Origin: a virus
Lineage: Duplodnaviria; Caudoviricetes
DNA length: 64,000 nt
Strand: one strand, 5' to 3'
IMG/VR virus record: IMGVR_UViG_3300013936_000017
Coordinates: 1 to 64,000 of that record
The position numbers were made by a program, and so were the translations under genes. Below are positions 734 to 60,215 of this stretch, piece by piece. The notes below the pieces were generated by a model. That model did not search any database, was not told the origin of the DNA, and saw only the letters and a list, made by a program, of their open reading frames with translations. The stretch's first letter is position 1. Every line of letters starts with the position of its first letter.

Positions 734-1564
734 TCAAGAGAAATTCATGGCAAAACTTGCATTTTTTACGGCCTCTTCGCTTTTCTTGATATAACGGCTC
801 GTAGTGGAAATGCTGGAATGCCCAAGCACGTCACGAATTGTGGCTACCGGCACGTTATTTTCGCTCATAATCGTCGCACAAGCGGCTCTGAGGGCATGGT
901 TAGCTAGTTCATTCCAAAATGGAATGCCAGCCCGTTTAGCGGCAATCCGAATCATGTTGGCCGTGTTTTTAGAGTTGAGCTTGCTATCCTGATTGCTGAC
1001 AAATAGATATTCGCATCTGCACGGATATCGGTTCTCAAGATAACCATCAATAGCAGCGCACACAGAATCATTGAAATAAACCATACGCTCCTTCGCGCCC
1101 TTGCCAAGAATTTTAATGCAATGTTTATCTTTGAGATAATCAGCCAGTTTGATGCTTGCCAATTCATCAAAGCGCATACCGGTTGAAAGCAGCGCGATAA
1201 TAAACGCTTTATCTCTGCGGCATTTTGCATGGTCGATAATGGCCTGTGCCTGTTCCTGAGAAAGATACGGCTTTGCCTTGTTCTTAATGGCCGGACGGTC
1301 GATGAGGTTGACAGGATTTTTGTCTACAATCCTGAACATCTCAAGAAAATGGAAGTAACTAGACGCCGCACTAAGCCGGACATTGATGGTGGAAGAGGAT
1401 AAATTTGCAAACGACGACTCCCAATCGGAAATGTCCATGGAGGTAATTTCATCTTCGGGCTTGCCGATATAATCAAGCATAGAATTGATAGTTTTACAAT
1501 AAGACTCGATCGTGCGCTCAGATTTCTTTTTATTCTTCATATACTGAATAAACATCTCGTTCAT
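734..1564 (-). CDS. Tyrosine recombinase/integrase (XerC/D family)
   Basis: STGMRFDEL, GKGAKER, HALR and LGHSSISTTSRY catalytic motifs; upstream TTGACT-17-TATAAT promoter near 1599-1626. Confidence 0.95.
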   Translation of the reverse strand: MNEMFIQYMKNKKKSERTIESYCKTINSMLDYIGKPEDEITSMDISDWESSFANLSSSTINVRLSAASSYFHFLEMFRIVDKNPVNLIDRPAIKNKAKPYLSQEQAQAIIDHAKCRRDKAFIIALLSTGMRFDELASIKLADYLKDKHCIKILGKGAKERMVYFNDSVCAAIDGYLENRYPCRCEYLFVSNQDSKLNSKNTANMIRIAAKRAGIPFWNELANHALRAACATIMSENNVPVATIRDVLGHSSISTTSRYIKKSEEAVKNASFAMNFS

Positions 1565-3117: not shown

Positions 3118-3191
3118 TGGCAGCGAGCGTTGGTTCTGCCCCAACGTCTACGGGTTCAAAGTCCGTTGTACTACTATTGTACTAGCCCGCT
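3118..3191 (-). tRNA. tRNA-Gln (TTG), atypical T loop
   Basis: AGCGGGC/GCTCGCT stem, loop CTTTGAA, T arm GTTGG-GGCAGAA-CCAAC, GCCA end. Confidence 0.85.
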
Positions 3192-17159: not shown

Positions 17160-19968
17160 TGGCATTAGATAAATTTATATATATTCACTCAATTGGCACA
17201 GATGCGTTATATACAGACGATGAAAAATATCGACATGACCGGCTGATTAAACTATATAAGCTGCGAAATTCTATCAAGGAATCCGGGCAAGATAAAGAAA
17301 TTCGTGATTGGCGATTAAAAAGCATAAACCGCGTACTAAAAAAAGAAAAATCTATCCTCTCTGAAATGCTTGATAAATCGTTGGAACATGACTATGCTCG
17401 AATATTGCGTTCAGATGCAATTCGAGACAAAGACGTTATCAATTTGTTTTGTTCTGAACTTACGCGAGCATTAAAAATTGAGCCGTTTACGCTTACTGAC
17501 GAGCTTATCATGGTTAACGTGTTTTTCTTTCAGGTGTTTAACAGTATTGTGCGCCATGGATTTATTTACAATGGCGAGAAGTACGTATTTTACACAGCCT
17601 CGGCTGGGCAGATAAGAACTAAACGAATGATTGCTATCAAGGAATCGTCTTACGAAAAAATCAAAAAACGCTTGATGTGTGGATTGACTGTCGAAAAGAT
17701 AAATGAGCTTGGTGGAATGAATCAGAACAAGTATTGCAGCTATCTGGCACTCACAAATTCGGCTACAGATGTTTGGGAAGGATTTGATATTCGCAAGTCT
17801 ATTGTTGTCGATGACTTTGAGACGATATTCAAGTCTGATGTTGATTATATTGACTATCAGACATATGACATTGAGCGGCGAAATATGGATGTTACGATTC
17901 CTTGTACTGATGGCTGGGGTATGGTCGATGGCGAGACGACTCGAATGTGTCGATTGCCATGGATAAAGGGACTTTTGGTAAATTTTAGATTCAAGGATTG
18001 GCTCAGAGAAAATTGTACGTCAGACCAATGGATTATTTCTGACATCTGGGGCGATGAGCATGATGTTGTGAATGATGACGTCAAATATATTTTCACCAAG
18101 AGTCAGATGAAATTGAGTAAATTTTATGATTCATGGGTTGAATATTGTGACGCGTTTGAAAAATACGGATGTCAAGCGTGTTATTGCAATATGGAAGAAG
18201 AAAATCTTCGTCCGTCCAGAATAAATTATCAGATGCTTCAGCAGCTTGTCAACCCGACTGATTATGAGCTTGATAGGATTGTAACTCGAACGAATCGAGA
18301 GATTTCGGCAATCGGCGTTGATTATCGAACGACTATGCGATTGCTCGGGGCGGTTGAAGAAAATGAGAATAAGAGCTTATTGCAAGAGGCATTGTTAATA
18401 TATCCTGAATTATTCAGAGACGAATATTTCAAAGATATATTAAAACAGACAAAAAAGAGTTTGGTTAAACAGGCGCGAGCTGGTCGGTTGAGAATCAATG
18501 GAAAATATTTATTCGTTTCGCCGAATCCCATTACGTTTTGTAGGTGGTTATTCAAGGATGAGAAATTGCCTGAAGAAGATTTTGGCCGAGATGAAATATA
18601 TACAAATCAATTCTTCGATGGTGATGAATTAGCTGTGCTTCGTTCGCCGTCCTTAGGCAAAGAATGGGCGATTCGCAAGAATAAGCGAAGTGAATATTTA
18701 GACAAGTGGCTTGGAGATTCCAAGTGTATATATACGAGTAGCTACGATACAATCAGTAAAATGCTGGCGTTCGACTGCGACGGGGACCGCTTACTCGTAG
18801 TAAAAGACCGAACGCTTATCAATGTTGCAAAACGTACAATGCAAGGTGTCGTTCCGCTTTACTACGAGATGAAAAAAGCAAAGGGTGGATTGCTTAATTC
18901 TGATTCGATGTACAAGAGTATGTCATTGGCATATACTTGTGGGAATATTGGGCCAATTAGCAATTTAATTTCTGTTGTTCATAATAACAACGAGGAAGAT
19001 AGAGAAGAAGCCGACAAGGTTATCAAGTGGCTTACAATGGAAACAAATTTTACGATTAACATTAGTCGCCTTGAGCAGTAATGTTCAAGTGAAAATCTGG
19101 TGAACCTGTAAATACAGGGTGTGCAGAAATGTGCTAACGGTGAAAATCTAAAGGCTGATGTCTATGACAATACCGTGCCAAGCCTTTAATGAGGAAGGTG
19201 TAACGACTATCCGAAAGGAGTAGCTTGTAGGTGAAATTCCTACTTGCGAAGTGCCAGACATCCATATTATGGATGAAGATATAGTCTATTCCCCTACTGA
19301 AATATCGGGAAACCGAGGGTATATAAAGAGATGGAGCTAAGACGCTATTTTTTTTAACGCGCCCAAAGTCAGTTGATAAAATTGTAAAAAAACATACAAA
19401 GGGCAAATTGCCAAACTTTTTCCAATATGCCAAAGATAAGACCGAATATCAGGTCGAACCAATAAATAATTCGACTATGAATCGAATTTCGGCTAAGATT
19501 GAGTCGTCGCGCCTGAAATTTTCAAAGACGATTGGCTCTTTGGATTATTTGATGCTTATGAATCATAATCGAGATTGCATGACAATGGTCGCGTCAGATG
19601 ATATTGTGATTCAGAGATATGATTATTGGTTGCGGCATCAATATTTGTTTAATCTTGAAGCGGATAAAGGTGTCAAGCAAGAAGATATGTATGTGTATCG
19701 CAAGATTCGAGAGGCGATTATTGACGAGACTGGCCTTGATGCTGAAGATGTGACAAATCGGCTTGTAAAATTTTTATATGTTAATCGAAAGTCGAGCCAA
19801 AAGAAAATGTTTTGGGCTTGTTTTGGAGAGGAAATTGTAAATAATCTCCAAAACAATACGAAGCAACTTGGAAATATTTGTCCGATTTGTGGCCGGAGAT
19901 ATATCCCTAAGAGGGCAAACCAAGCTGTATGTTCGGCAGAATGTGCCAGTTTGGCAAAACATATATAA
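17159..19968 (+). CDS. yonO: YonO-like single-subunit RNA polymerase; two exons 17159-19056 and 19329-19968, about 845 aa
   Basis: SAGQIR, TDGWG, R.PWIKG, LRSP, FDCDGD catalytic motif; splicing restores NFTIDGAKT; C-terminal CxxC..CxxxC. Confidence 0.88.
19057..19328 (+). mobile_element. ORF-less group I intron (272 nt) in the RNA polymerase gene
   Basis: P1 with U-G pair (CGAT/GTCG), P7 aacGACTAt...gaagataTAGTCt, terminal G, in-frame exon ligation. Confidence 0.9.
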
Positions 19969-39281: not shown

Positions 39282-42200
39282 TGGCTAGTAGTGGTGGATA
39301 TAGTATTTATGTAGATGCAGAACTTAACTTAGATAAGTTAAAGAAGGATTTACAGACAAAAGGATTAAAACTGCCTCTTACTGTCGATAATTCCGGTGCG
39401 AAGAAGGCATCTAAAACATTAGAAGATATATCCAATAAAATGGAGGATGCAAATAGCCAAGTTTCACAATTTGGACTAACATGGCAAGAGGCATCGTCTA
39501 TTATGAGTAAGTGCGTCGACATTATTGAGAAAATGACCGACCAAGTATTTGAACTTGATACGTCATTAACAGAGTTAATATAAGCTCGCTTTCATTGTAA
39601 AATGAATGAATAATAATCTATTGAATTGCTGGAAACCCCTTAGAGCTATACAAACTACAACATAAGTATGAAATAAAACTAGGTGTGAGAGTTTGAAAAT
39701 TGTATAGATTGGGCAATCAGCAGCCAAGCCTTGAATAGAGGAAGGTTCAACGACTATCCCGCAAGGGAGTACACTGCAAGCGATTGGCGGTGGAAGTGGT
39801 AGACATCCAAGATTTGGATGAAGATATAGTCTGAACTCATATAGAAATATATGGAAATGTGTGGGAGTAGCGTCCTTTTAATAATGGGATTAAATTAGTT
39901 AGAATTCCTTATTGGGATTATAAAAATATTGAAAATATATTATCATCATTATTACACTAAAACATACTTGTTAAGAAGGTCTCCGACTTGTCGGGAAGCG
40001 CCTTAGATTTATATGTCGATAAACTTTCTGATATGGGAAAAGAAGTTGCTAGAACCGGTAAACCAAATCGGTCTGAGCCGGTATGTTGTGATGGTAAAGC
40101 AGCATAGAGAACGTCCCCTAAACCCTTGAAATCCTAAAGCCTTATCAGCTACAACATAAGGATGAGATATGCTTACGTGTGAATGCAAGAAATTATAAAA
40201 ATGATAAGGATTGCATATGGCGGAAACGCCTAAGTGCTGTAACAATGGAAGATTGGGCGCGAAGTCTTGATGAGAGATGTGTCAACAGAATATACGGGGT
40301 GGCCCTCCAACAATATAGGGTAAAGAATTATTCGGGCGGTATTTGAAAAAATATCGGATTATTGTATTGACAAATTACGAGATGTGTGCTATGGTTGTCT
40401 CATCAAATGAATGGAGGCAATAAATATGGGCAAGATGATGTTGATATTCGTAGCGGCTCTTATCTCTATTGATTATTTGAATAGTGGAATTCTAGGCACT
40501 ATTTTTTATATTTGGGGGCTTATTGAAGCATATAAAGTGCTTATTAGGCCGTTAATTCAGATTGCAAAAAAGCCGAAAAATAGTGATATTGATAATTATT
40601 TATATCATTGGAATAAGGCACAAAATGACATGGAAAAAGAATATGGTACTATTGATTGGCAGAATAGCCACAAAAAATAATTTGTTGATATAATAATAAT
40701 TTATGGCCGTCAGAGATGGTTGATGCGGCGACTTAACGGAATAGGTCGATTATGTAGAAATACATATAGAGAACGGGGTGAATTGCCGGAAACTCCTTAG
40801 AGCCTTTAACACCAAAGTGTAACAGAGTAAGGGATTGGACAATCGGCAGCCGAGCCAATATTGATTTATTGGAAGGTTCAACGACTAGGATTGAAATAAT
40901 ATCCGTAGACTTCAAGTGAAGTCGAAGTGCTCCGCAACCGCACAGGTTGAAGATATAGTCTAAACTTATATGAAAGTATAAGAGGTATTTATGATTAGGA
41001 AGAAAAAAGAAGCAGAAGTGCGCCAATGGTGTTCCGAAAATGGATTTGAACCATTGTCAATAAAAGGAGACTATTATAAAAACGGAAAATCCGTTATAAA
41101 GATTTCATTGAAATGCGAAAAATGTGGGACTAGATACGATAGAGATTGGAATAACTTAAAAAAGCAAAAATTCCCACATTGTTGTACTTCTTGCGCACAC
41201 ACAGAGATTCAAAATGAACGCAGGCTGAACGCGCAAAAGGTAGTTGATTTGTTTGCGAAGTACGGTTATAAAGTATTGACTCCAACAGACAGAATCAAGC
41301 CTGTAGGAAAGAGAAATCTTTATAATTTTGCAAAAGTAGATATTGAAGATAGGTTTGGTGTTGTGAGAAACATATGCTGGAATACTTTTCAGTCAAAATT
41401 GCAATATTACATTGACTTAAACGAAGGTGGTCATTGTTCTGCTGAGCTGACGAAGCCTAGTTCTTTAGAGCAAAAAGTAATTGATTTTTTGGACGAGAAT
41501 GAGATTCCATATAAGCGAGAATTTAAGTTTTCCGGATGTAGGAATAAATGTATGTTGCGCTTTGACTTTTGTTTATTTTATGATACAGAGAACAGAATTT
41601 TAATTGAGGTTGATGGTGAGCGGCACTATAAATCTTTATTTAAGGATTTGCAACATAATGATGAAATAAAAAATTATTATTGCACAACTAATAATATTCC
41701 ATTGCTTAGAATCCCATATTGGGAATTTAAGACAGACGATTACAAAAAGTCTATTCAAAATTTTATAAATACCAATAAAGTGTAACGAGCTTTATAAATA
41801 ATATTGATTTTCCGCAAAAATAGTTTCAACGATGAAGATTCTGCTAATTTAGCAAAAATTGCGGTTATGTTTACCAATGTAGCCGATGAAGAAATATCAG
41901 CTGCTGATAGTGCAGGCTTCATCATTTCTCAGATGAAAGCATTTGGTATTGAAGCCGAAAATGCAATACATATAATCGACTCTATCAATGCCGTTTCAAA
42001 CAACTATGCTGTTTCATCTGGGGATTTAGCTAATAGCATTGGCAATATGTCGGCGGCTTTGGCTGTTGGCAACAATTCATTTGAAGAATCTCTTGCGCTC
42101 CTCGCGAGTGGGACTGAGGTGACTCGAAACGCAAACAAAGTCTCTCGTGGACTTGTGAGTGTGCAGAGTCGCTTAAACCAAATTGTCGATGAAGGTTCCG

Positions 42201-45200
42201 ATGTTGGTCAAAAATTGACTGATTGGTATAAAGAGCATGATATTGCCATCAAAGACCAAGATGGGCAATTAAGAAGTCTATATGATGTTCTTAAAGATGT
42301 TGCTGGAATTTGGCCGACATTGACTAAGAACGAGCAAGCGTATTATCTTAATCAGCAAGCGGGTAGATTTATGCCCCAAATCAAGGCGTATATGCGGGGA
42401 ATTGCTTAGAGCCTTAGTTACTTGGAAGGGTAATGACCAACCAATAGTAAAAACACTAAGGATTGTTTAATCCGCAGGGAATTGTTCTTAATAGAGCTTG
42501 CCCTCAACGACTATCCCAAAAACGTGGCGAGGTGAGACGCTCGCAATAGGAGTACGGCCCAAGTGGGTGGGTGAAAATCCCTTAAATGGAAGTGCCTTGA
42601 CATTGAGAAATCAATGGAGATATAGTCTGAACATTATGGGAAATCCATAAGAAAGAAAGTTTTATTAAATTAAAAAATGGAATAATCGAGAGATATTGAT
42701 AGAGGTGGACGGGCAACAGCATTTTTATGTTGGTGGATGGACAGATGTGGATAAACTGCAATACAATCAAAAAACAGACAAGATAAAAGATGACTATTGT
42801 AAACTAAATTGGTATGAACTTGTACGCATTCCACATTGGATATATCGACACACGACACATAAAGATATATTAAATAAAACTTTCTTTGGCTAGAGTAACG
42901 ACCTAGCTTAACAAACTGTCGAATCAATCTCAGAATCTAGCGGCCATTTTATCGAATTTCAAGACGGCAACGTATGCGACAACGACTGCGCTTGAATCTG
43001 CTGGTTCTGCTGAACAAGAGAATCAACGTTATCTTGAATCGTTAAATGCTTCAGTTCAACAGTTGAAAGCGACATTCCAAGATTTTGCTAATAATGTAAT
43101 TAACAAAGATTTGGTACAAAATGCGCTGAAATTCCTAAATGCTATTCTAGAAGGATTAAGTAGTGGTGTTTGGACAACAATAACGCAGATTGGGTTACTT
43201 GCTGGCGTTTTAACGGGCGTGATTAGTATTGGTGGAACTGTTGGAAGTAAACTAATCGGGATGATTGGCGGTATGGGGGCATTTGGCACCGCTACTGCCG
43301 CCGCAACTGTGACAACTACAGGATTCGCCGCTTCATTAAAAGCCGCTGCGGCCGCTGCGGGGCCGTATGCTGCTGTTGCCGCTATTGTTGCAACAGTTGG
43401 TTATAAAGTCGTAAAATGGCTATTAAATCAGCGAGAAACATTAGAATCTGTCACTGAAGAGTTAGATAAAAATAATAGTGAGTTAGAAGCTAATAAAAAT
43501 AGGCTTCATGAACTATATCAAACTTCGTGGTATGATAGAACACCTGAGATTTCAGAGGAAATTGCAGCTCTCGAAGAAGAAAATAAAGAGTTGCAAGACC
43601 AAATAGACAAATTACAAGAACGTAAAAAAATTCTTGAGGGAGAAAAAGAACCCGGGAAGTCGCCTAAATATATTAGCGGTGGAACTGTAACAGAAACAAC
43701 TTCTGGTGGCTTTGCGCACACATATACTCTTCAATCGTGGCAAGAATATCTTGAGGGGATCAAAGATGCTCCGGGATATGCGGGAAAAACGCTTCGAGAG
43801 ATAGAGGATATGCTTGTAGATTCTGGTTCTACTATTATCTACGAAGCAGATAACACTATTACTCAACTTCAAGAAAAGCTATCTAGAGGAGTTAGACCAT
43901 CAAGTGATGAACTTGTAATGTACAATAATTTAATGTCTGAACTTGGTTCTTTTAGAGACGAAGATGGGATTATTCATTTTACGGAATTAAATTATTCTGC
44001 TGTACAATATGTTAGTTCATTGCTTGATTTGCAAGATGCGTATGAAGCAACAGCCGCAAAAGCCCGTACATATGCAGAGCAAGTAGCTTACACTAAGTCT
44101 AAAGATGCTCAAAATCAAGCGATTCTTAATGATGCCGTAGCTCAAGGTTTGACAACGCAATCAGAATATAACAACATGATTAAGGTTTATACTGATTATG
44201 GAATGTCATATTCCGATGCGTTGGCTGCTGTTGCAAAGCGATTTAAGGATGCAATTAGTGCTCTTGGGAATCTAAATAATGTTAGCGACCTAGCAAATGA
44301 AACCATTCAAGACTTAATCAAAGAGCTAACTAATGCTCAGACCGCCTATAATTTTTTCACAGAAGATGGCAATCTAAGCATTGATACTCTAGTAGATATT
44401 CGTGATGCATTTTCCGATGTTTCTGGTATTGACACATATATTGACCGCCTAGGCGCAGCTGGCAATACCGCTGATGATGTCCGCGAGATTCTTGGCCAAT
44501 TAGTAGAAGCTAAAGTTAAAGCGACATTCTCGACTGAGCAATTAGCCGGTTCTGAAGCAACCGTAGTAGCCAAGATGCTTGATGAGGCCGGTGTCGCCAA
44601 TTCGCTTGAAGTTGCTACGCGCCTAATTACTGAGGCGAAGTATGATTTAGCAAGTCAGAATATTGCGACAGATGGTACGATTGAGGATGCAATTAAACTC
44701 CTTAGTGCAGAAAAAAATGTATCTGAAGATGTTAGAATTGCATTTGTTAATCTTGTAGCTCAAGAGAAAATTTTCAACAATTCTACACTTGATGTTTCTC
44801 AAAAGCGGCAAGCGCTTATGGAACTTTATACAGCTGCCAATATGGTAAATGGTGCGTTGTCGTTTAATGCGGCATATGGCACGTTTGCTAATAATTATAT
44901 TGCTGCTGTTGGGGATGCCACAGAAGAAGAAATTCTTAATGCATTTAATCAATATTCTATTGATAAATACACACAACAGATTATAGATGCAACCAAAGAT
45001 GTCACATTTAAAGATAAAGATAAGAGTGGTACATCTGGTGGTGGCGGCTCGTCTAAATCTACAGAGGACACCAAGCTAACGGCGCTCAAAGAATCTGTTG
45101 AACTTCGCAAGTCTGAGCTTGACCTTATGGACGCTCAAGGCGCATCTGATACATCTCGGATTGAGAAAATCCGTGAAATTATTAAAGCTCTACAGAACCA

Positions 45201-46437
45201 GATTGATTATATGAAGAAATCTGGTGCAAGTCAAGCCGATATTAACGCGCTTATCAAAGAGCAGCTCAGTTATGAAGATAAAATCAAGGATATTTATAAT
45301 GAAATAATTGAGGCTCAAAAGGAAGCGTTGGAGACGCGGCGCGATAATCTCAAGTCTGCGTTTAGCACTATTACTGATATGGCGCAAGACGAGCTTGATA
45401 AAATCGAAGAGCTTGAAGATGAAATCAATAAGAAATATGATGATAAACTAGACGCTCTTGAAGATGCGAATGATGCACTTGAAGACCAGATTCAGCTTGA
45501 AGAAAAATTAGAAGCATTGGCCAAGGCTAAGACCACTAAAAAAATGGTTTATAGCAATGGCCAATTTGTCTATATGGATGACATTGACTCGATTTCTGCG
45601 GCTCAAAGTGAACTTGATACACTAAATCGTGAGCGCGAGCAAGAGCAACAAAAAGCAGAGATTGAGGCTCAACGCAAGCAAGAGCTTATTGATAATCGCA
45701 TAGAAGAGCGCAAAAAAGAATGGCAAGATTATATTGATACATGGGGTTCTATTGTCGATAATTACGAGAAGCAGCAAGATAAGTTGCTTGCATCACAGAT
45801 TTTCGGTATTAACCTAGAAGAACAAAATTGGCAGAAACGAATTGACAACGCCAAAAAGTTTGCAGACGAATATGCTAACATCATGAGTCAGATTAGCATG
45901 ATTGAAAACATTCAATCTGCGGCGTCTGCTAGTGGTGGCTTGACTGTTGACCCAAGCATTGATTATTCGGCCAAGATGCTACAAGCAAAGAGCGAGGATG
46001 AATTCTTGTATTGGTCTGCGTATCGTGATGCGAAGATTCAGCAAACAGGTTCGGAGTCTAAGATTACTAGCGGCAAAATTCGCAGTAATGAGCAATTGTA
46101 TAATGATTGGAAGAAAGCTCAAGGCTACGCCGTTGGCACATATTCTTCCAAGTCTGGTTTGGCTATGCTTGGAGAAAATGGCCCAGAGCTTGGCGTCCTC
46201 AAGGGCGGCACTGGCATTCTTCCTGCCGACATTACCAAAAATCTATGGGCGTGGGGAAGTACGACGCCAGCCCAGATGATGTACGCACTAGATTCTGTGT
46301 CTGGGCAAAATTCTGGCGGTGTAAACATGAACAATGTTGTGCTTGAATTCCCGAATGTTCGGGATGGTAACGACGCAAAAGATTTTGTAACTAATGTGGT
46401 CAATCTTGCTTATCAAAAGGCATATAAGAGGGCATAA
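39281..46437 (+). CDS. Tail tape measure protein; five exons 39281-39575, 39971-40059, 40710-40733, 41807-42364, 42919-46437; about 1494 aa
   Basis: Splicing rebuilds LDTSLTEFKKVSDL...VARTGSEMVDAATIFRKNSF...QQAGSNQ; NAVSNNYAVSS, LRSLYDVL and YAVGT...GENGPEL motifs. Confidence 0.88.
39576..39970 (+). mobile_element. Group I intron TMP-I1 (395 nt) with a 26-codon endonuclease remnant at 39880-39960
   Basis: P1 GAGT/GCTC, aattgctgg/aatcagcag, GACTA/TAGTC, terminal G; remnant NNGIKLVRIPYWDYKNIENIL. Confidence 0.9.
40367..40395 (+). promoter_or_regulatory. Intron-internal sigma-A promoter
   Basis: TTGACA-17-TATGGT with TGn extension. Confidence 0.7.
40426..40680 (+). CDS. 84-aa two-TM membrane protein inside intron TMP-I2
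   Basis: GGAGG RBS; MGKMMLIFVAALISIDYL and GILGTIFYIWGLIEAY hydrophobic segments; charged tail. Confidence 0.75.
   Translation: MGKMMLIFVAALISIDYLNSGILGTIFYIWGLIEAYKVLIRPLIQIAKKPKNSDIDNYLYHWNKAQNDMEKEYGTIDWQNSHKK
40734..41806 (+). mobile_element. Group I intron TMP-I3 with intact endonuclease gene
   Basis: P1 CGACT/GGTCG, aattgccgg/aatcggcag, GACTA/TAGTC, terminal G. Confidence 0.9.
40991..41785 (+). CDS. Intron-encoded Vsr/DUF559-like homing endonuclease with Zn finger
   Basis: CEKC..CTSC, S.LE, LRFDF, LIEVDGERHY, D..KN.YC....IPLLRIPYW. Confidence 0.85.
   Translation: MIRKKKEAEVRQWCSENGFEPLSIKGDYYKNGKSVIKISLKCEKCGTRYDRDWNNLKKQKFPHCCTSCAHTEIQNERRLNAQKVVDLFAKYGYKVLTPTDRIKPVGKRNLYNFAKVDIEDRFGVVRNICWNTFQSKLQYYIDLNEGGHCSAELTKPSSLEQKVIDFLDENEIPYKREFKFSGCRNKCMLRFDFCLFYDTENRILIEVDGERHYKSLFKDLQHNDEIKNYYCTTNNIPLLRIPYWEFKTDDYKKSIQNFINTNKV
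42365..42918 (+). mobile_element. Group I intron TMP-I4 with truncated endonuclease (about 42690-42893)
   Basis: P1 GGGT/GCCC, tgcgg/ccgca, GACTA/TAGTC, terminal G; only IEVDGQQHF...LVRIPHW remains. Confidence 0.88.
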
Positions 46438-46476: not shown

Positions 46477-46845
46477 TTGATGCGTATGGGTCAAGCAGAC
46501 GAATTTCTTAACGCCATAGATGTCATTGTAGATAAAAAACTGGCCGAAACATCAACTCGGGTTTATTCTGGTAGATGTGTGTCGGTCGACAGTGCGGCTA
46601 AGTGTACTGTAGCTATGAATGGCCGGAATAATTCTGTACAGTATTATGGTCAACAGCCGCTTATAGGTGCTACATATCGTGTAGTAGTGCCAGCTGGTAA
46701 TATGTCTAATGCGTATATTATCGTGGCGAATCCAAGCCCATATATCGCCTCTAAGACGGCCCCTAGTGATACTGGCGCGCTATGGATTGATACCAATTAT
46801 AACCAGATGAAATATTATAATGGAACCGCATGGGTTTCATGTTAA
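46477..46845 (+). CDS. Baseplate/tail protein
   Basis: Directly after tape measure; APSDTGALWIDT motif. Confidence 0.65.
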   Translation: MMRMGQADEFLNAIDVIVDKKLAETSTRVYSGRCVSVDSAAKCTVAMNGRNNSVQYYGQQPLIGATYRVVVPAGNMSNAYIIVANPSPYIASKTAPSDTGALWIDTNYNQMKYYNGTAWVSC

Positions 46846-48931: not shown

Positions 48932-50377
48932 ATGGCTATCAATATTTCCAATGAAGATTATAAGGTAATTAAACAGCAATATATTGTTAAATATCTACGG
49001 CTAAACATTCTTGATTTCAAGTTCAACGTCGTCAATGAGCTATCTGGCCGATTGACAGGTTGCAATATACAGTGCAATGCCGATAGCGATATTCGGCGCA
49101 CCTGCTCTGTTGATATGGTTGTAACCGACACATCGCTTGATATTCAGCCCGGAGGCCAGATTTTCCTTGATAAATATTGCCAGCCATATGTTGGCTATGA
49201 GGATATTTATACTGGTGAGATTCAATGGTACAATCAAGGAATCTATATGATTAACCAACCATCATTCCAGTATTCTGCAACGACGCATACGTTGTCTTTT
49301 AGCGGCATTGACCTTATGGGCAAGATGACGGGCGTAAGGAATGGCAATCTTGAGGGATTGCCCACAGTTATTCCACAAGGCTCGAATGTGCGCGAAGCAA
49401 TGATTGCTACAATTGGATTGGCTGGTTTTAATAATTACATTATAGAAGAATGTAAATTAAATGATGGCACAATTCAGCCAGTTCCTTATGATATTGAGAT
49501 TCAACAGGGCGGCACTGTATATAATATCCTCACTGAATTGCGTGATATTATGCCGAACTATCAGATTTATTTTGATGTGAATGGCGTATTTCATTATGAG
49601 CCAATTCCTGATGGAAAAGACGACCCGATTTTGATTGATGATGATTTGTGGCCTAGTGTGCTGATTCAAGAAAATGTATCAACGGATTTTGAATCAGTAA
49701 AGAACTACGTTGAGGTATATGGCAAAAGTCATGATGTTGACCATTATCCGTCAGAAATTTCCGTCAGTGGCTCAGATATAACATTGACCATCGCGTCATT
49801 ACCGACTTCGATTGATAAATATACCATGATTGGATTTACTACGCCAGAGGGGAATGCTATTAGCGGTAATATTACAATCAAAGTAAATTCGATTGATGCC
49901 ATTGCGCTTGTAGATAGTTCTGGAAAGCAAATTCAGTCGCTAGATGCCAATACATATTATGTGGCATATTATCAACCGGCAGAGGATAACGTAGCTGCTA
50001 CATGGCTATTTTTAGGACATCAACAGGCGACTGCAATCTCATGGGACGATAATCCAGATAGCCCATTTTATGTGAATGGTCCAGTTGGACAGATTCGTAT
50101 CGTGTTATATGGCGGTGATTATGATAACATCATGTCCGATGAACTGGCCAAGCAACGTGCAGACATTGAGGTTTACTGGCGATGTCGATTGAATGATAGT
50201 ATCTCGCTATCTTGTGTGCCAATTCCATGGATGGATGTTAATATCGTTATGAACCATGCAATGCGAGGTCATACAGAACAGGGTAAATATATTATTAAAT
50301 CATATAGCGTAGATTATGGTAGCGAGACTGGCCAGATGACCATCAATGCTATTACATTCTATGAATATTATAAATAG
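48932..50377 (+). CDS. Baseplate hub/Tal-like tail protein
   Basis: SDIRRTC, QGIY, DLMGKM, YFDVNGVF, IPWMDVN. Confidence 0.7.
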   Translation: MAINISNEDYKVIKQQYIVKYLRLNILDFKFNVVNELSGRLTGCNIQCNADSDIRRTCSVDMVVTDTSLDIQPGGQIFLDKYCQPYVGYEDIYTGEIQWYNQGIYMINQPSFQYSATTHTLSFSGIDLMGKMTGVRNGNLEGLPTVIPQGSNVREAMIATIGLAGFNNYIIEECKLNDGTIQPVPYDIEIQQGGTVYNILTELRDIMPNYQIYFDVNGVFHYEPIPDGKDDPILIDDDLWPSVLIQENVSTDFESVKNYVEVYGKSHDVDHYPSEISVSGSDITLTIASLPTSIDKYTMIGFTTPEGNAISGNITIKVNSIDAIALVDSSGKQIQSLDANTYYVAYYQPAEDNVAATWLFLGHQQATAISWDDNPDSPFYVNGPVGQIRIVLYGGDYDNIMSDELAKQRADIEVYWRCRLNDSISLSCVPIPWMDVNIVMNHAMRGHTEQGKYIIKSYSVDYGSETGQMTINAITFYEYYK

Positions 50378-50390
50378 GGGGGGCGTGTAA

Positions 50391-50720
50391 ATGCCTACTA
50401 CTTATCCGGGAAGCATTCAGCGCTTCCCGACAATGGAGAACATTACTGCGGCTGATTTGGCGCTCGTCAAGCAATATCATGATGCGATTGATGCTGGCGA
50501 TGCGACATTAGCACAGCAGATTTATAATTCCATTGAAAACGCAGATGCTAAATTCTTGACATCTGAGCTGTTCAATACAATGGCTGATACTGTGGTAGCA
50601 GTTCAGACAAGGATGAAAAATGAATATACTCCTGCATATATTTTATCTACGACGCAGCCGACAAGCCAGAGCAATGGTGATTATTGGTTTGAGATTACGG
50701 CCGTAGAGAATGGGGGTTGA
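50391..50720 (+). CDS. Small tail protein
   Basis: TYP..IQ.F start and QP..Q..GDYWF motif shared with 55722. Confidence 0.65.
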   Translation: MPTTYPGSIQRFPTMENITAADLALVKQYHDAIDAGDATLAQQIYNSIENADAKFLTSELFNTMADTVVAVQTRMKNEYTPAYILSTTQPTSQSNGDYWFEITAVENGG

Positions 50721-51097
50721 TGGCGATGTTTCAAGATATACATCTAGAAGATTCTAACCATCGGCTCCAATTTAGAAAGTATATGGAAGATGGAGATTAT
50801 GCCTCGGCGGCTTCTGTGTTGCAGATTGCGGCATTAAAGCAAAAGACGCTGACGGCAGAGTATATCAATAAAATCACGGGGCTGATTGAGCAAATTGAAG
50901 AATTAGACGACCCGGATTTTATGGCCAAGTTGATTATTTGTTCATTGGAGCCGCCCGCCGATATTAAATCCGGCGATGTTTGGTTCCAGAAATTTGTGCT
51001 ATATATTTGGTCGCAAGTTAATGCGCTAAACTATACGTGGCAGACGATGAATAATAAGGCGCTTGGTTGGGATGAAATAAATAGAGGAGGTTGGTGA
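50717..51097 (+). CDS. Small tail protein
   Basis: EPP....GDVWF motif; operon coupling. Confidence 0.65.
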   Translation: MMAMFQDIHLEDSNHRLQFRKYMEDGDYASAASVLQIAALKQKTLTAEYINKITGLIEQIEELDDPDFMAKLIICSLEPPADIKSGDVWFQKFVLYIWSQVNALNYTWQTMNNKALGWDEINRGGW

Positions 51098-51098
51098 T

Positions 51099-51326
51099 AT
51101 GGCGGTAACTCCATTTGAACTAACTGAGGCTTTTACAATGGAAAATTTCAATCTGCGCATTCAGCAGATGAATGATTCCATTACGGAGGCTGGTGGCTTT
51201 GTCGCACAAAGCACAGCACCTACTAATACTGGCAAATTGTGGATTGACACTGGCAATGCAAATGTCATGAAATTTTATGATAAGGCCACATCCACATGGA
51301 AGCCAATTACGGCGGCATGGGGGTAA
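51099..51326 (+). CDS. Small tail protein
   Basis: APTNTGKLWIDT motif shared with 46477. Confidence 0.65.
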   Translation: MAVTPFELTEAFTMENFNLRIQQMNDSITEAGGFVAQSTAPTNTGKLWIDTGNANVMKFYDKATSTWKPITAAWG

Positions 51327-51333
51327 TTAGGGT

Positions 51334-52233
51334 ATGTTAACTGCTCAACAAATGAAGGAGCTTAAAGCTCTGGTTAAGGCAGAAGTTCTACGCCGCAATG
51401 CAAGTGCCGGTTCGCTTTCTTCTTATGGCTCAGAAGAATGGGATTTTGATGTCGAGCCAACAAAAGGAAATATTACACTTGCATCACAAGGTAAAAAAGT
51501 CCTAGAGCCACTACTCGCTATTTCTGATTGGGAAAGCGAGAAATATGGAATCGCGCACCATGCTGTTGGCGTACCACAAGCGGGCGGCATTTATCCACCT
51601 GATTTTTCATATGAAGCCGGTATTTTTACATGGGTAAATAAACTCAGAGAAGAAACTATGACTGGTAGCTATAGCTCGTGTAGAACGCAATGTAGTGGAT
51701 TATGCTCTGGTACTTGCGGAGATACGTCGTCTCAAGGAAGTACATATTGGGGGTGTTTGAATTCGTGTGGTGGTGGGTGTGCTACTGGATGTACGAACCA
51801 TTGCTCCGGAGGGTGCGGCCTTGCTTGTGATTATGCTTGTTCTAGCGTGTGTTTTAATACTTGCGATGACCAATGCACAGGATATTGCACAGGAACGTCT
51901 GGGCCGGGAACTAGTCAATGTACAGGTAGTTGTTCTACTGTTTGTACAGGCGGGTGCTCTGGAAGTTGTTCTGGAACGTGTCAATCTGCTTGCGGTGGTG
52001 CTTGTGCTTATAGTTGTTCTGCTGCTTGCGGAGGGTGCAGCTCAGGCTGTACAGCTACTTGTGGCGGGTGCTCTGGAAGTTGTGGAGCTGGGTGTTCAAC
52101 TGGGTGTTCTGGACAATGTCAAGATGCTTGTTCTGCTGGTTGCACCAATGCTTGCAAAGGAAACTGTGGTTTTAGTTGTGGCGGTCAATGTTGGAAAACT
52201 TGTACGGCTGGTTGCTGGGGAACTGCTCAGTAA
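51334..52233 (+). CDS. CXXX-repeat Cys-rich protein, putative radical-SAM modification target
   Basis: About 115-aa Cys-free N-terminal domain, then 42 Cys almost all at 4-residue spacing in three runs. Confidence 0.88.
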   Translation: MLTAQQMKELKALVKAEVLRRNASAGSLSSYGSEEWDFDVEPTKGNITLASQGKKVLEPLLAISDWESEKYGIAHHAVGVPQAGGIYPPDFSYEAGIFTWVNKLREETMTGSYSSCRTQCSGLCSGTCGDTSSQGSTYWGCLNSCGGGCATGCTNHCSGGCGLACDYACSSVCFNTCDDQCTGYCTGTSGPGTSQCTGSCSTVCTGGCSGSCSGTCQSACGGACAYSCSAACGGCSSGCTATCGGCSGSCGAGCSTGCSGQCQDACSAGCTNACKGNCGFSCGGQCWKTCTAGCWGTAQ

Positions 52234-52268
52234 TATATAAAGGAAATTGAAAGGAAAATAAAGCGGAA

Positions 52269-52568
52269 ATGAAAACAATCGAAATTACTGTTGATAATCA
52301 GCAGATGGTCGAACTTCTCGAATCTCTTACTCTTGAAACAGAATCTCGTAGAGATGTAATTTCTTTTATGTTGTCGAATGATATGATGACGACAAGTTCT
52401 GAATCGTTTAAGAAGTATCATGATGAATACCAGAAGTTTTACAAGCAGTATGATATTGCAAAGCAGGAATTTCAGAAGATTTATGTCGACGTTATTCCAA
52501 ATGCGGTTCATTGGTCGCTGAATTTTAACGAATCTCTGCTTACTGTGACAGTCGATGAAAAAAACTGA
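52269..52568 (+). CDS. CXXX-repeat modification system accessory protein
   Basis: 99-aa helical protein ending W.LNF between target and radical SAM, as in TIGR04116-type loci. Confidence 0.65.
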   Translation: MKTIEITVDNQQMVELLESLTLETESRRDVISFMLSNDMMTTSSESFKKYHDEYQKFYKQYDIAKQEFQKIYVDVIPNAVHWSLNFNESLLTVTVDEKN

Positions 52569-53874
52569 AGAATACGGGAATACGATTGCTCGGCTATTCC
52601 CACATCAAATTGTAGAAACGGCAGGGAATAGCCCGATGCATCATGCTGTCAAAACTGTTACAATCCAAACAAATGATAGCTGCCCATTATCTTGTGTCTA
52701 CTGCTACCAGATTAACAAAGGGAATCATATCATTCCAATCGAGATAGCTAAGGCATTCATCGATAAGTTGCTAACAAATCAATATGCCGAATATATCGAC
52801 GTTAATGATACAGATGGTATTATCCTTGAATTTATTGGTGGCGAGCCGCTAGTGGCAATCGACATTATTGATGAAATTACAGATTATTTCATTAAGCAGA
52901 TGATTCTTATGAATCATAAGTGGCTACCTCGATTCCGTCTTAGTATGATTAGTAATGGCGTATTATATTTCGAGCCAAAAGTGCAAGAATATCTGCGAAA
53001 GAATGCGGCGCATTTGAGTTTTGGCATTAGTATTGATGGCAATAAGGAACTGCATGATGCTTGTCGTGTATTTCCTGATGGTTCTGGTAGCTATGATATG
53101 GCTATGGCCGCAGTTCGTCATTTTAGGGAGCATTTTACTGATAAAATTGGCTCCAAGATGACATTGTGCCCAGCTAATATCATGTACACTTATGACGCTG
53201 TGGTGTCGCTAATTGAGAACGGCTATGATGAAATAAATCTTAATTGTGTTTATGAAGAGGGCTGGACTGACGATGATGCGAAAATTATGTACCAGCAGCT
53301 CAAGAAGTTGGCCGATTATATCTTTGAGCATGACCTATGGGATAAAGTATATTTGTCCATCTTTGAGCAATCTATGTTCCATCCATTGAGCGAATCGGAC
53401 AATACGAACTACTGCGGCGGCAATGGCGCAATGCTTGCTATCGACTGGAAGGGCGATATGTATCCTTGCATTCGATATATGGAATCTAGTGTCGGTGATG
53501 ATGTCGAACCGATGATTATTGGCAATGTGTATGATGGTATCATGAAAACGCAGAAGCAGTGTGATTGCGTACACTGTCTGTGGTCGATTACACGCCGTTC
53601 ACAAAGTACAGACGAATGCTGGAATTGCCCGATTGCGTCTGGGTGTGGGGCTTGTACTGCATATAATTATCAGCATTTTGGTGATGCAAATCATCGTGCG
53701 ACATATATTTGCTGTACACATAAGGCACGTGCGTTGGTCAATGCGTATTATTGGAATAAAGGCTTTAAGCTAAATAACGAGATGAAGCGATTTCATCTTT
53801 ATCTGCCAGATGATGATGCATTAAAGATTATTGATAAAGATGAGCTTGCAATGCTAAAATCTCTGGAAACTTAA
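52555..53874 (+). CDS. Radical SAM/SPASM peptide maturase, CXXX-repeat target family
   Basis: CPLSCVYC, FIGGEPL, ISIDG...HD..R; SPASM CGG...G.MYPC...CWNCPIASGCGAC...C. Confidence 0.92.
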   Translation: MKKTEEYGNTIARLFPHQIVETAGNSPMHHAVKTVTIQTNDSCPLSCVYCYQINKGNHIIPIEIAKAFIDKLLTNQYAEYIDVNDTDGIILEFIGGEPLVAIDIIDEITDYFIKQMILMNHKWLPRFRLSMISNGVLYFEPKVQEYLRKNAAHLSFGISIDGNKELHDACRVFPDGSGSYDMAMAAVRHFREHFTDKIGSKMTLCPANIMYTYDAVVSLIENGYDEINLNCVYEEGWTDDDAKIMYQQLKKLADYIFEHDLWDKVYLSIFEQSMFHPLSESDNTNYCGGNGAMLAIDWKGDMYPCIRYMESSVGDDVEPMIIGNVYDGIMKTQKQCDCVHCLWSITRRSQSTDECWNCPIASGCGACTAYNYQHFGDANHRATYICCTHKARALVNAYYWNKGFKLNNEMKRFHLYLPDDDALKIIDKDELAMLKSLET

Positions 53875-55650: not shown

Positions 55651-55721
55651 TATAAATAATAAAACAGGCTGGCGTTCATTCGTCAGCCTGTTTTCTAATC
55701 TATATGGAAGGGATGTGCGCA

Positions 55722-56885
55722 ATGAGTACAAAATTTCCTAATAACATCCAGACGTTTGGCCAGTTTCAAGATATGACTTATAATGATTGGGAGATGTTGG
55801 CGCAGTATCGTAAGGCTATGGCTGATAGTGACTTTGCAACTGCACAACAGGCGCTCAGAGGCATATCCAAGCTAAAGAATAAACTACTAACTAATGGATT
55901 TATGAATGATATGCTGGATACGTGTTATGCCGTTCAAGATTTCTTTGATAATAGGCAGGTTCCGGATTATATTGTTGGAGCGATTGAACCAACTGGCCAA
56001 AAAAAAGGAGATTTATGGTTTGAATCTCCGGAAATGGGATATATTAAATTTTCGTCGCCAACGTCATTTACTATCGGACACGAAGCAAATCAAAAAACAT
56101 GGGATGGAACGATATATTATTCGGCAGATGCAAATACATGGAGTGTTTGGGATGGAACGACCATTCTTTCTTCTGGAGTTGGTAATAAGTTGTATTTTCG
56201 CGGAGAAGGAAATACAGTTCTCGGAAAATATGTTGCTACAGATGATTATAAGGCTAGATGGGTTTTAACCGGGGAAAACATTTCATGTAGTGGAAATCTT
56301 GGGAATTTATTAGATTTTCGTGATGTGGCGGCGGGAAGAACGGTAACTATGGGCGTTAATGGGTTTAGGTATCTTTTTTCTCGTCAAGCGGCTTTGATTT
56401 CTGCTCCGCAACTTCCAAACATTCCAGAAGTCCCACAAAATGGTTATATTTCATTATTTTACGGAACTTCCATTACGGAAGCCCCAAACATATACGCTAA
56501 AACTATTGGAGATTCTGGATGTTTGAATATGTTTGAAAATTGTACAAAACTCAAAAAACCATCATTGATTATGGCGACAACCGTCGAAAGATATGGTTGT
56601 GGGTGGATGTTTGCTGGATGTACAGAATTAAATATTTTACCAAAATTATATGCAAAATCATTAGCTCGTGGAGCTTGTAATAATATGTTTGAAAATTGCT
56701 CAAATATTAAAATCTCTGAAACCAAGACTGATGAATATATAAATGAATATTCAATTCCAGCAACAAAAGACGGAATAACGGCAGACACATATTCTTTTAG
56801 TAGTATGTTTTCTGGTACTAGTGGTACATTCACTGGAACTCCAACAATCAATACAACCTATTACACGTCAAATGAGGTGATTTAA
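55722..56885 (+). CDS. Tail protein with BspA-like leucine-rich repeats
   Basis: Repeats MF.NCT.L...P.L.A; N terminus paralogous to 50391. Confidence 0.72.
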   Translation: MSTKFPNNIQTFGQFQDMTYNDWEMLAQYRKAMADSDFATAQQALRGISKLKNKLLTNGFMNDMLDTCYAVQDFFDNRQVPDYIVGAIEPTGQKKGDLWFESPEMGYIKFSSPTSFTIGHEANQKTWDGTIYYSADANTWSVWDGTTILSSGVGNKLYFRGEGNTVLGKYVATDDYKARWVLTGENISCSGNLGNLLDFRDVAAGRTVTMGVNGFRYLFSRQAALISAPQLPNIPEVPQNGYISLFYGTSITEAPNIYAKTIGDSGCLNMFENCTKLKKPSLIMATTVERYGCGWMFAGCTELNILPKLYAKSLARGACNNMFENCSNIKISETKTDEYINEYSIPATKDGITADTYSFSSMFSGTSGTFTGTPTINTTYYTSNEVI

Positions 56886-57283: not shown

Positions 57284-58300
57284 GTGGGATATTTTAAGGC
57301 TCCGGATGGGGCGTATTTGTTTGATGATGAACAAGTCGAGATTAAACGAGACGCTCTTGGGCGTCCTATTGTAACACTTAAAACCGGCGGTCAAATTGGC
57401 GTCATGTCTGTAAATGGCAAGGCTGGGGATGTTGTGTTGTCGTGCGACGACCTCAATGCAGCAACAAAAGACGACTTAGCCAAGTATCTTCCGCTTGCTG
57501 GTGGTAAGATGGATAATATGGCTACTATTTCTACTGACAATATGCTTACTTTAAGTGCAAAGGAGAAATCTGAACTTAGTCTAACGGACGCTGGCTACAT
57601 TTTTATGCAAGGCAATGCTGGCGTTTATGTCATGGGCGGCGAGCATACAGTAGGATTTAATTCTAATGGAACAGTTGATTTTGGCAACCAAAGGATTGTC
57701 AAAGCGGCAAATCCAACGGACGACACCGATGTAGCCACTAAGAAATATGTTGACAATTCGACCAAAGACCAGACGACGCAGATGAAAACTATGGAAGATA
57801 CCGTTCAGGCGCTCAATAGCGAAGTTGGCGATTGCGAAAAGAAGTTGGACAACTTTAACACTCGTGTTACCGATGTTGAAGGTGCTATTGCTACCAAGTT
57901 AACATTATCTGGTGGAACAATGGAAGGAAATATTGACATGAATGATTATGCCGTTACAAATGTGCAGAAGATTCATGTTGATGGCACGACTCCTGTGTAT
58001 ATTGGCTCAGTTATCGAACAATCTGAAAATGGTGTGCGCCTTACTAGCACGACTGCTGGTGAAGCCGCGTTTGTTAAGCCAAATACTCAAAGCTCATATG
58101 CGCCCGTATTCGGTGGGACTCCTACAAATGTTAATCATCTAACTACAAAAGGGTATGTTGATAATTCGCTTAATGCAATGATTCCGAAAATCCCAAGCAA
58201 TGATAAGCAATATATTCTTACTGCGACGAACGGAGAATTAAAATGGGTTTTGACGATGGACTTGGATTATGTTGACCCAACTGAAGGGAGTGGAACTTAA
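57284..58300 (+). CDS. Trimeric fibre protein
   Basis: SVNGKAGDV, LPLAGG.M, ANPT...DVATKKYVD motifs. Confidence 0.72.
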   Translation: MGYFKAPDGAYLFDDEQVEIKRDALGRPIVTLKTGGQIGVMSVNGKAGDVVLSCDDLNAATKDDLAKYLPLAGGKMDNMATISTDNMLTLSAKEKSELSLTDAGYIFMQGNAGVYVMGGEHTVGFNSNGTVDFGNQRIVKAANPTDDTDVATKKYVDNSTKDQTTQMKTMEDTVQALNSEVGDCEKKLDNFNTRVTDVEGAIATKLTLSGGTMEGNIDMNDYAVTNVQKIHVDGTTPVYIGSVIEQSENGVRLTSTTAGEAAFVKPNTQSSYAPVFGGTPTNVNHLTTKGYVDNSLNAMIPKIPSNDKQYILTATNGELKWVLTMDLDYVDPTEGSGT

Positions 58301-58550: not shown

Positions 58551-60215
58551 ATGCCTTCTATTCAAATTAAGCGCGGCCTTGAAGCTGCTGTAAAAGCCTA
58601 CGCCCTAAAAGCTGGCGAGTTTGGTTTTGCGACCGATACAAGTATCCTTTATATTGGCACTAACGGCACTGCCGCTGGTGTTATGCCTATCAAGGCTGTT
58701 GCTAATGGTGGTGCTGCTACCACTGCCGCCACTCTTGCGACTGCCCGCAAGATTGGTCTAACTGGCGAGGTTGAGGGCGCTGGTGTTGCGTTTGATGGCT
58801 CCAAGGATATTACTATTAGCACCACAATTAAGAACGGCTCTGTTGACAAGGCTGCTCTTGATGCTGACCTTCAGGCCGCTATTGATGCCGCTGGCACTGC
58901 TCTTCAAAAAGCTGACATTGCTGAAGGCGCGACTGATGGCACTATCTCTGTCGACGGCGCGAATGTAAAGGTTCATGGTCTTGGCTCTGCTGCCTATACT
59001 AGCTCCGATGCTTATGATGCCGCTGGCGCTGCTGATGCAGTCAAGGCCGCTGTTGTCAATACGCTCGGTGCTGGCGATAATAGCGTTACTATCGGTGGTA
59101 CTGCTACTGCTCGTACCGTCGTTGTTAAGCTCGACCCTGCCGCTTCCAATAAGCTCACTCTCACTGATGCTGGCCTCAAGGTCGAAGTTCCTGCCGCTGC
59201 CGAGTACGAGATTGTCAAGGCTGAGACTGCTACCGAGGGCTACTTCGCTACTTATACCCTTATGAAGGACGGCACTCAGGCTGGTGCTTCCATTGATATT
59301 CCAAAGGATTATCTCGTAAAGTCTGCTTCCATCAAGGCCTCTACTGGCGAAGATGACCCCTCTGGTTTTGCCGCTGGCGTTAAGTACATTGATTTCGTCA
59401 TCAACACCAAGGTTGGTACTGGCAACGAAGACCACATCTATCTCAATATCCAAGACCTAGTCGATGTTTACACCGGCTCTCAGGGCGCTGAAATTAACGT
59501 CACCATTGGCGCTGACAACTCTATTGCCGCTTCTATCGTTAATGGCTCCATTGCCAAGGCTAAGCTCGCCGAGGCCGTTCAAACCTCTCTTGGTCTTGCT
59601 GACTCTGCTCTTCAGGTCGCTGATGTTGCCGAGGGTGCTACCAATGGCACTATCAAAGTCCGTGATGACGAGGTCGCTGTCCATGGTCTAGGCACTGCCG
59701 CTTATGAGGCTAAGACTGCATTTGACGCCGCTGGTGAGGCCGCTAAGGTTCTTGGCGTAGATGGCGATGCTGATACTAAGGCTACTGTCTATGGCGCTCG
59801 TGCTCTTGCTCAGAAGGGTGTAGACGCTGCCGCCGCCGCTGAGGCTGTTGCTGATGGCAAGGTTGCATCTGTTACTGCTACTGATAAGTCCATTGTTGTT
59901 GGTGGTACGGCTGTTGCACCCACTGTCAAGGTTGGTGTTTCCACGACTGGTGGCAATGCCCTTGTCCTTGACGAGAATGGTCTTTATGTTGCCACTTCTG
60001 ATTCCATGGAGACTGGTCAAGGCATTGACATCACCGACAACACGATTTCTGCCAAGGTTGTTGGCGGCAATGGCCTTGCTCTTACCGATAATGGCATTAC
60101 CATGAATGTTGCTACAGATGCCACTGCTGGCGCTGTTAAGGCTGATGGCACGACTATTCTCAACACTTCTGGTGTTCTTTCTATCAACAATATTGACTGT
60201 GGTGAGATTGGCTAA
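58551..60215 (+). CDS. Tail fibre with hyaluronidase/Mtd-type N-terminal domain
   Basis: IQIKRG...LKAGEFGFATDT..LYIG; LATARKI.L.G...FDGS.DI; internal duplication; strong codon bias; terminator at 60258-60302. Confidence 0.8.
   Translation: MPSIQIKRGLEAAVKAYALKAGEFGFATDTSILYIGTNGTAAGVMPIKAVANGGAATTAATLATARKIGLTGEVEGAGVAFDGSKDITISTTIKNGSVDKAALDADLQAAIDAAGTALQKADIAEGATDGTISVDGANVKVHGLGSAAYTSSDAYDAAGAADAVKAAVVNTLGAGDNSVTIGGTATARTVVVKLDPAASNKLTLTDAGLKVEVPAAAEYEIVKAETATEGYFATYTLMKDGTQAGASIDIPKDYLVKSASIKASTGEDDPSGFAAGVKYIDFVINTKVGTGNEDHIYLNIQDLVDVYTGSQGAEINVTIGADNSIAASIVNGSIAKAKLAEAVQTSLGLADSALQVADVAEGATNGTIKVRDDEVAVHGLGTAAYEAKTAFDAAGEAAKVLGVDGDADTKATVYGARALAQKGVDAAAAAEAVADGKVASVTATDKSIVVGGTAVAPTVKVGVSTTGGNALVLDENGLYVATSDSMETGQGIDITDNTISAKVVGGNGLALTDNGITMNVATDATAGAVKADGTTILNTSGVLSINNIDCGEIG

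Follow-up and report, generated by a model that had tools for sequence, protein, structure and literature searches.

Radical S-adenosylmethionine (SAM)/SPASM maturases are studied for their part in making small secreted peptides. One catalogued group, the CXXX-repeat system of NCBIfam, combines an enzyme of family TIGR04115 with a target that carries a ladder of cysteines in CXXX register behind a leader of ~25 amino acids (aa), and with a companion gene of ~100 aa directly upstream of the enzyme gene. A cassette sharing these three components was analysed in the IMG/VR virus record IMGVR_UViG_3300013936_000017. The stretch under study, termed the window in the following, comprises the first 64 kb of this 97,963-bp record, which is rated complete by CheckV. 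The cassette occupies positions 51334-53874 (plus strand) and consists of open reading frames (ORFs) for a Cys-rich target, a helper, and an enzyme, all on one strand. In place of the short leader, the target starts with a conserved domain of ~105 aa, and the context is that of a tail-fibre module. Judged from sequence comparison and gene order, we consider the chances about even that the cassette is a dedicated, self-contained maturation system, which cross-links a tail-fibre-associated protein.

Among characterised relatives, PapB of the PapB/PapA (freyrasin) system scores best with the enzyme (164.7 bits, not reaching the cut-off of 340 of NF047865). PapB is a SPASM enzyme that forms a series of small thioether rings along tandem Cys motifs (PMC12373016). 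The PapA peptide is small and its motifs read CXXXD, unlike the target described here, in which the next residue after CXXX is Cys and Asp is rare. For SPASM action on whole proteins only one recent paper was found in the literature searched, according to which CrpC of Methanococcus voltae puts ranthionine cross-links on the whole Cys-rich repeat protein CrpA (PMC13692751). CrpA resembles the target in its leader-like N-terminus and as a whole-protein substrate, but its repeats of 17 residues with CXXQ/D are unlike the ladder described here. CrpC itself belongs to another enzyme family (TIGR04463; the enzyme of the window reaches 57 bits, cut-off 525) and is archaeal, cellular, and non-viral. 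The literature search returned neither a characterised member of TIGR04115 nor a description of a CXXX system in phages. The enzyme family is already catalogued, and its putative phage tail-fibre version is without description in the literature searched.

Components of the cassette

51334..52233, plus strand: target protein, 299 aa (ORF, Cys spacing, N-terminal domain family, match to phrog_6085)
52269..52568, plus strand: helper (ACC), 99 aa (ORF, AlphaFold2 model)
52555..53874, plus strand: radical SAM/SPASM maturase, 439 aa (TIGR04115, match to phrog_1802 at 5e-58)

An earlier reading of the letters alone, in the following the sequence-only reading, had proposed three tightly packed, co-oriented genes at these positions, and coordinates, strand, and packing were all confirmed. 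Only 7 nucleotides (nt) separate the end of the upstream gene from the target gene, a gap of 35 nt follows between target and helper genes, and the helper and enzyme ORFs overlap by 14 nt; the target gene ends 322 nt upstream of the enzyme gene. In G+C content and GC skew the cassette does not differ from the neighbouring genes.

The enzyme passes TIGR04115 (radical SAM peptide maturase, CXXX-repeat target family, rSAM_Cxxx_rpt) with 422.1 bits at a cut-off of 350, covering model positions 2-359 of 359. Both the CX3CX2C motif at residues 43-50 (C43, C47, C50) and the SPASM cysteines (C287, C305, C355, C358, C364, C367, C386) are present, each kept in 54-55 of 55 homologues. The claim of a complete radical SAM/SPASM enzyme thus held, and the protein is a true CXXX-repeat maturase. 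The next-best families, all below their cut-offs, are PapB (165 bits), QhpD (108), and the SCIFF maturase (106), which are thioether-forming SPASM enzymes. From these nearest characterised relatives and the CrpC-type precedent we infer that the enzyme of the window forms Cys thioethers. Its best genome relatives, with 57-58% identity, occur in the Oscillospiraceae, likely the host group of the phage.

Some maturase homologues contain inteins: a mini-intein inside CX3CX2C (CNLC/C...VHN/CSYC) at locus L023, 6947-9103 (same as L008), a LAGLIDADG intein at L081, 6989-9343, and two inteins at L133, 8729-12151. More distant enzymes occur in giant Seoulvirus and Erwinia phages, which carry two adjacent radical SAM genes with ~23% identity to the maturase, e.g., L172 of Salmonella phage STsAS (MH221128.1, 58090-60205) with a DUF4376 gene nearby.

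The AlphaFold2 model of the helper has a predicted local distance difference test (pLDDT) score of 95.5 and is composed of a strand (2-7), a long helical hairpin (11-36 and 45-73), and two further strands (79-85 and 90-95), the strands forming a three-stranded sheet. Neither Pfam nor a profile search of solved structures returned a match for this protein. With regard to the PqqD-like recognition element of ribosomally synthesised and post-translationally modified peptide (RiPP) systems, which has a winged-helix fold, no PqqD family match was obtained in Pfam, and the confident model shows the hairpin and sheet described above. Recognition domains of other peptide-modifying radical SAM enzymes sit in a slot like that of the helper, which provides an analogy for its function. 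At L064, L070, and L077, the helper makes up the first ~100 residues of the enzyme, and in L112 it is duplicated. On contig P0004 it is fused behind the ladder of the target (hhalign probability 98.9%), a single case that could be an assembly error. Due to these fusions a functional tie of the helper to both enzyme and target is indicated.

Residues 1-115 of the target (nt 51334-51678) form a helical domain without Cys, in agreement with the Cys-free N-terminal domain of the sequence-only reading. A conserved junction, SSCRTQCSGLCSGTC, leads over to the ladder; the first Cys of the protein is residue 116. Its 42 Cys were likewise correctly described as being in CXXX register, with 37 of the 41 spacings equal to 4 and the remainder being 3 (twice), 11, and 13; the residues between them are nearly all Gly, Ser, Thr, or Ala. 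AlphaFold2 models residues 1-60 with a pLDDT of 87-97 and the ladder with 33-60, and predicts for residues 1-110 a small helical domain with helices 4-20, 29-32, 50-63, and 97-106. A full HMMER search with residues 1-118 gave 80 representative clusters (E<=1e-3), of which about 75 represent true relatives; no names are attached to the target clusters. The true relatives nearly all start with the ~105-aa domain (MLTAxQxxxLKAKVKAEMxRRxGxGSL...), after which come the junction SSCRGxCxGLCxGxC and a Cys ladder whose length varies. Only uncharacterised gut-phage homologues of the conserved domain were returned from BFVD. In the phage collection, the best matches come from gut contigs lacking annotation (38% identity), and none of the cultured phages with a proteome has a close homologue.

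Across related loci the target ranges from about 140 to 567 aa and contains up to about 120 cysteines. Tandem paralogues occur, with six tandem Cys-rich genes in one 128-kb phage, and at many loci a second protein consists of the ladder alone without the conserved domain. In an abundant group of phages of ~58-60 kb (L047-type), domain and ladder are followed by a 190-aa C-terminal domain, for which no match was found in Pfam, PHROGs, PDB sequences, or the ESM Atlas. Exceptions in domain order are given by L128 and L129, in which the conserved domain is located C-terminal to the ladder (domain E-values 2e-4 and 2e-3). A RiPP precursor in the usual sense is short, with a leader removed by a protease; the target comprises 299 aa in the window, and no recurrent peptidase gene was found at the loci. 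The architecture of the target, with a domain, long repeats, and in one abundant group a C-terminal domain, is closer to that of a fibre than to that of a peptide natural product.

With respect to the catalogued models TIGR04114-04119, the enzyme belongs to the family (TIGR04115), but helper and target stay below the curated cut-offs of TIGR04116, TIGR04114, TIGR04117, and TIGR04118. In detail, no protein of the record, the helper included, matches TIGR04116 (cut-off 50 bits) at E<=10, and a Vallitalea homologue of the helper reaches 14.8 bits. The best single ladder repeat scores 14.7 bits on TIGR04114/PF27846 at a cut-off of 20 and is absent from the hmmscan listing, while target homologues at 92-96% identity have a precomputed PF27846 match. 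Matches of the ladder to TIGR04117 and TIGR04118 are weak and do not reach the curated cut-offs, and a TIGR04119 component (cut-off 150 bits) is missing, the only match being a stretch of 17.4 bits inside the enzyme. Since helper and target fall below the curated cut-offs, the cassette is a divergent, phage-type version of the catalogued CXXX system. The classical bacterial system was encountered once among 401 Bacillota genomes (L168), where the enzyme is accompanied by a TIGR04116-like protein of 101 aa (37.9 bits) and by two short-leader precursors, each ~70 aa long. Aligned to this TIGR04116-like protein, the helper profile yields an hhalign probability of 2%.

Genomic context in related phages

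A scan of viral contigs with the single protein found only 2 loci; the alignment-based scan used instead yielded 156 relatives of the enzyme, and 80 loci were retained from it. When one genome of each species was scanned, 47 close relatives with at least 34% identity were found, all in Bacillota and chiefly Clostridia, except for one contig of the Treponemataceae. After redundancy removal at 85% enzyme identity, 67 phage and prophage loci of Clostridia were left, with the target present in 51 and a match to the helper profile in 57 of them. Cultured carriers are Neglectibacter timonensis SN17 (L095), Eubacterium pyruvativorans i6 (L098), Faecalibacterium prausnitzii strain 2 (L136), and Vallitalea maricola AN17-2 (L121). 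The linkage of enzyme, helper, and target is thus solid. Close genome relatives adjoin baseplate genes, and many "bacterial" TIGR04115 matches are suggested to lie in prophage tail modules.

Random genome positions, as expected for a moron, had been named as the outcome that would speak against a tail function, but placement of the cassette was non-random, i.e., after baseplate and fibre genes in the non-redundant loci. At least 5 kb of upstream sequence are available for 55 loci. Same-strand genes for Baseplate_J, sheath-initiator, Mu Gp48, P2 gpI, or YQBQ proteins occur upstream in 26 of these, and a recurrent tail-cluster family in 36. Three different types of tail or baseplate module are each followed by the same cassette. 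One is composed of a LysM-type protein, a YQBQ/M23 hub, sheath initiator, Baseplate_J, and Mu Gp48, another is of the P2 gpI type, and the third is that of the window itself with its DUF5048 tail protein. In 7 other loci, too, homologues of this 481-aa tail protein precede the cassette, at a distance of 3-5 kb.

As to the lack of transporter, peptidase, and immunity genes stated in the sequence-only reading, the transporter part was borne out, with no ABC transporter above cut-off in the whole record; peptidase and immunity genes were not searched exhaustively. Across the surveyed loci no transporter or peptidase family recurs near the cassette, which supports the sequence-only reading; two prophages contain one ABC-like ORF each, 7-9 kb from the cassette.

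The gene just upstream of the target gene varies in length from 75 to 796 aa, with collagen-like repeats and typical fibre motifs in some cases, and shares a conserved C-terminal module of ~40 aa (APxNTxxLWIDTxNGGxxKYYNGxxWxxVxxVWG-stop). In the window, the C-terminal ~40 aa of the 75-aa protein (APTNTGKLWIDT...TWKPITAAWG) represent this fibre-end module. It is situated at the very C-terminus in 36 of 40 matches. For 26 of the 54 target genes, its end lies no more than 400 nt upstream. Where the target gene is located downstream of the enzyme gene, as in L014 and L091, the module gene moves along with it, and in L064, L070, L075, L077, and L135 it directly precedes the fused helper-enzyme gene. 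A second copy in the window, at the end of a 122-aa protein after the tape measure (46477-46845, plus strand, domain E-value 3e-13), indicates that the module belongs to tail proteins in general rather than to the cassette alone. A profile search of solved structures gave no match for the module; a WW-like identity was considered on account of two Trp ~20 residues apart and was rejected as unsupported. Complex prediction for the 75-aa protein and the conserved domain of the target returned no verdict (score 0.11, mark 0.32).

Proposed function and rival explanations

The occurrence of the same set beside fibre genes in many phages points to a tail appendage cross-linked by the enzyme, without proving it. 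That the target is a tail-fibre component is proposed because the cassette keeps its placement across unrelated tail modules, because the target gene persistently adjoins the distal end of the fibre, and because of the architecture with a domain, long repeats, and in some cases a C-terminal domain. The inteins of the enzyme, found in three lineages at conserved sites, were counted in favour of this proposal, as were the neighbour-like G+C content and GC skew and the lack of a recurrent transporter or peptidase family.

According to the proposed mechanism, four genes would be transcribed together with the tail genes. The helper, a protein of its own in the window and fused to the N-terminus of the enzyme in some phages, would hold the target, probably gripping its conserved helical domain, which would thus be leader-like without being cut off. 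The enzyme would cleave SAM, abstract a hydrogen from a carbon near each Cys, and join the thiol there, travelling along the ladder and leaving a chain of small thioether rings. The uncut product would enter the tail as a fibre part or tip, beside the fibre with the conserved C-terminal module encoded directly upstream. In strictly anaerobic hosts, an appendage cross-linked in this way may be stiff, resistant to proteases, and insensitive to redox conditions. Phage fibres in two parts, with the distal adhesin as a separate protein, are known from gp37 and gp38 of the T4 type. The logic proposed to be shared, by way of analogy, is a small Gly/Ser-rich protein encoded right after the fibre gene and located at the distal end. 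T4 gp38 differs in having no sequence or fold similarity to the target and in needing no modifying enzyme.

It is quite possible, although we would not call it the expected outcome, that phages of strictly anaerobic Clostridia build a host-recognition part from a protein with dozens of Cys, which a phage-encoded RiPP-type radical SAM enzyme converts into a thioether ladder. If so, a widespread group of gut phages applies RiPP-type chemistry to a structural, host-recognition protein. It would constitute the first case of a virus particle protein cross-linked by a radical SAM enzyme and a new kind of virion post-translational modification, and would represent a redox-independent substitute for disulfides. 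It would furthermore offer a reason for the confinement of these phages to anaerobes, a natural scaffold with dozens of tandem thioether rings, and a marker gene set for tail-fibre modules of uncultured Clostridia phages.

Several observations weigh against a cross-linked tail component. With only 5 Asp in the 184 residues of the ladder, the CXXXD acceptor pattern of PapB is absent, and the chemistry of the enzyme is deduced from relatives at 20-25% identity. Fold searches returned no known fold for the conserved domain of the target (best Z 4.9) or for the helper (only generic helical matches, Z < 8). No tail family is recognisable upstream in 19 of the 55 loci, and in 6 of the 55 an amidase endolysin gene lies within a few kb downstream. 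The end of a fibre cluster, before the lysis genes, is also a usual site of phage cargo genes, and position alone is therefore no proof of a structural role. Likewise, the missing transporter is weak evidence, since lysis frees a non-structural product without an exporter.

The main rival to a tail-fibre component is a non-structural product, i.e., a large RiPP-like modified cargo protein freed by phage lysis or made in the lysogen, which would be directed at competing bacteria or the host surface or would serve as a decoy. We regard it as rather unlikely, though well worth weighing. The enzyme family is otherwise tied to small peptide precursors such as those of L168, the cassette is often found at the fibre/lysis junction, and an exporter is unnecessary given lysis. 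Furthermore, a tyrosine integrase gene (776-1267, minus strand, 112 bits) is located at the left end of the record, the phage therefore being probably temperate, which is compatible with this reading. Targets of up to 567 aa with extra domains and the lack of a recurrent leader protease are, however, at odds with such a cargo. So are the continued adjacency of the target gene to the conserved fibre C-terminal module in many lineages, the fibre genes on both sides of the cassette in the window, L002, L014, and L123, and a G+C content equal to that of the neighbours.

Two further explanations appear improbable. The Cys-rich protein may be a scaffold or chaperone for fibre folding in a slot of the P2 gpG type, absent from the finished particle; its slot indeed matches that of tail-fibre assembly genes in P2-like order (J, I, fibre, then target gene). 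A costly dedicated radical SAM enzyme, up to ~120 Cys per protein, and tandem paralogues are nevertheless hard to explain for a transient chaperone, and similarity to known fibre chaperones is lacking. Equally small is the probability we assign to a ladder that binds metal or iron-sulfur clusters, with an enzyme making a modification other than a thioether. The metallothionein-like Cys density and the lack of a CXXXD-like acceptor pattern point in this direction, and the low confidence of the modelled ladder would permit a cofactor-dependent fold. To our knowledge, though, the CXXXC spacing is not a known cluster-binding motif, and the nearest characterised relatives by score (PapB, QhpD, and the SCIFF maturase) all form Cys thioethers.

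Neighbouring genes in the window

41804-42409 and 43063-46437: tape-measure pieces, upstream of the cassette
48932..50377, plus strand: tail or baseplate protein, 481 aa (phrog_1887, tail protein; DUF5048)
50391-50720 and 50717-51097, plus strand: two small paralogues of 109 and 126 aa (blastp family 111)
51099..51326, plus strand: 75-aa protein with fibre-end module (alignment A6)
55704..56885, plus strand: fibre-like protein, 393 aa (N-terminus paralogous to the 109-aa and 126-aa proteins)
57284-58300: weak T7-tail-fibre-like protein, downstream of the cassette
58551..60215, plus strand: Mtd_N protein, 554 aa, tropism-determinant type fibre (Pfam PF18454, 30.6 bits, cut-off 26.3)

The sequence-only reading had located the cassette between baseplate and fibre genes, which is consistent with the tape measure and the phrog_1887/DUF5048 protein upstream and with the T7-fibre-like and Mtd_N proteins downstream; fibre-type genes thus flank the cassette on both sides. 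The 109-aa and 126-aa proteins share the N-terminal part of the 393-aa protein, for which no match was found in Pfam or PHROGs, and look like stand-alone fibre anchor modules. The 554-aa Mtd_N protein marks the extent of the fibre cluster and lies in a stretch of raised G+C. No template/variable repeat pair of the diversity-generating retroelement type was found near its gene at 57-64 kb, where only a 47-nt pair with 72% identity occurs.

Two tRNA genes (2747-2817 and 3121-3191, minus strand) are situated near the integrase gene at the left end of the record, and this end may represent the attachment-site end of a prophage. Group I introns above the Rfam gathering cut-off were detected at 39572-39854 (95 bits), 40724-40982 (77 bits), and 19047-19309 (53 bits), all on the plus strand, the second being followed by an HNH homing endonuclease ORF (40991-41785). 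Due to the location of the first two just ahead of the tape-measure pieces, the tail genes appear to be interrupted by mobile introns.

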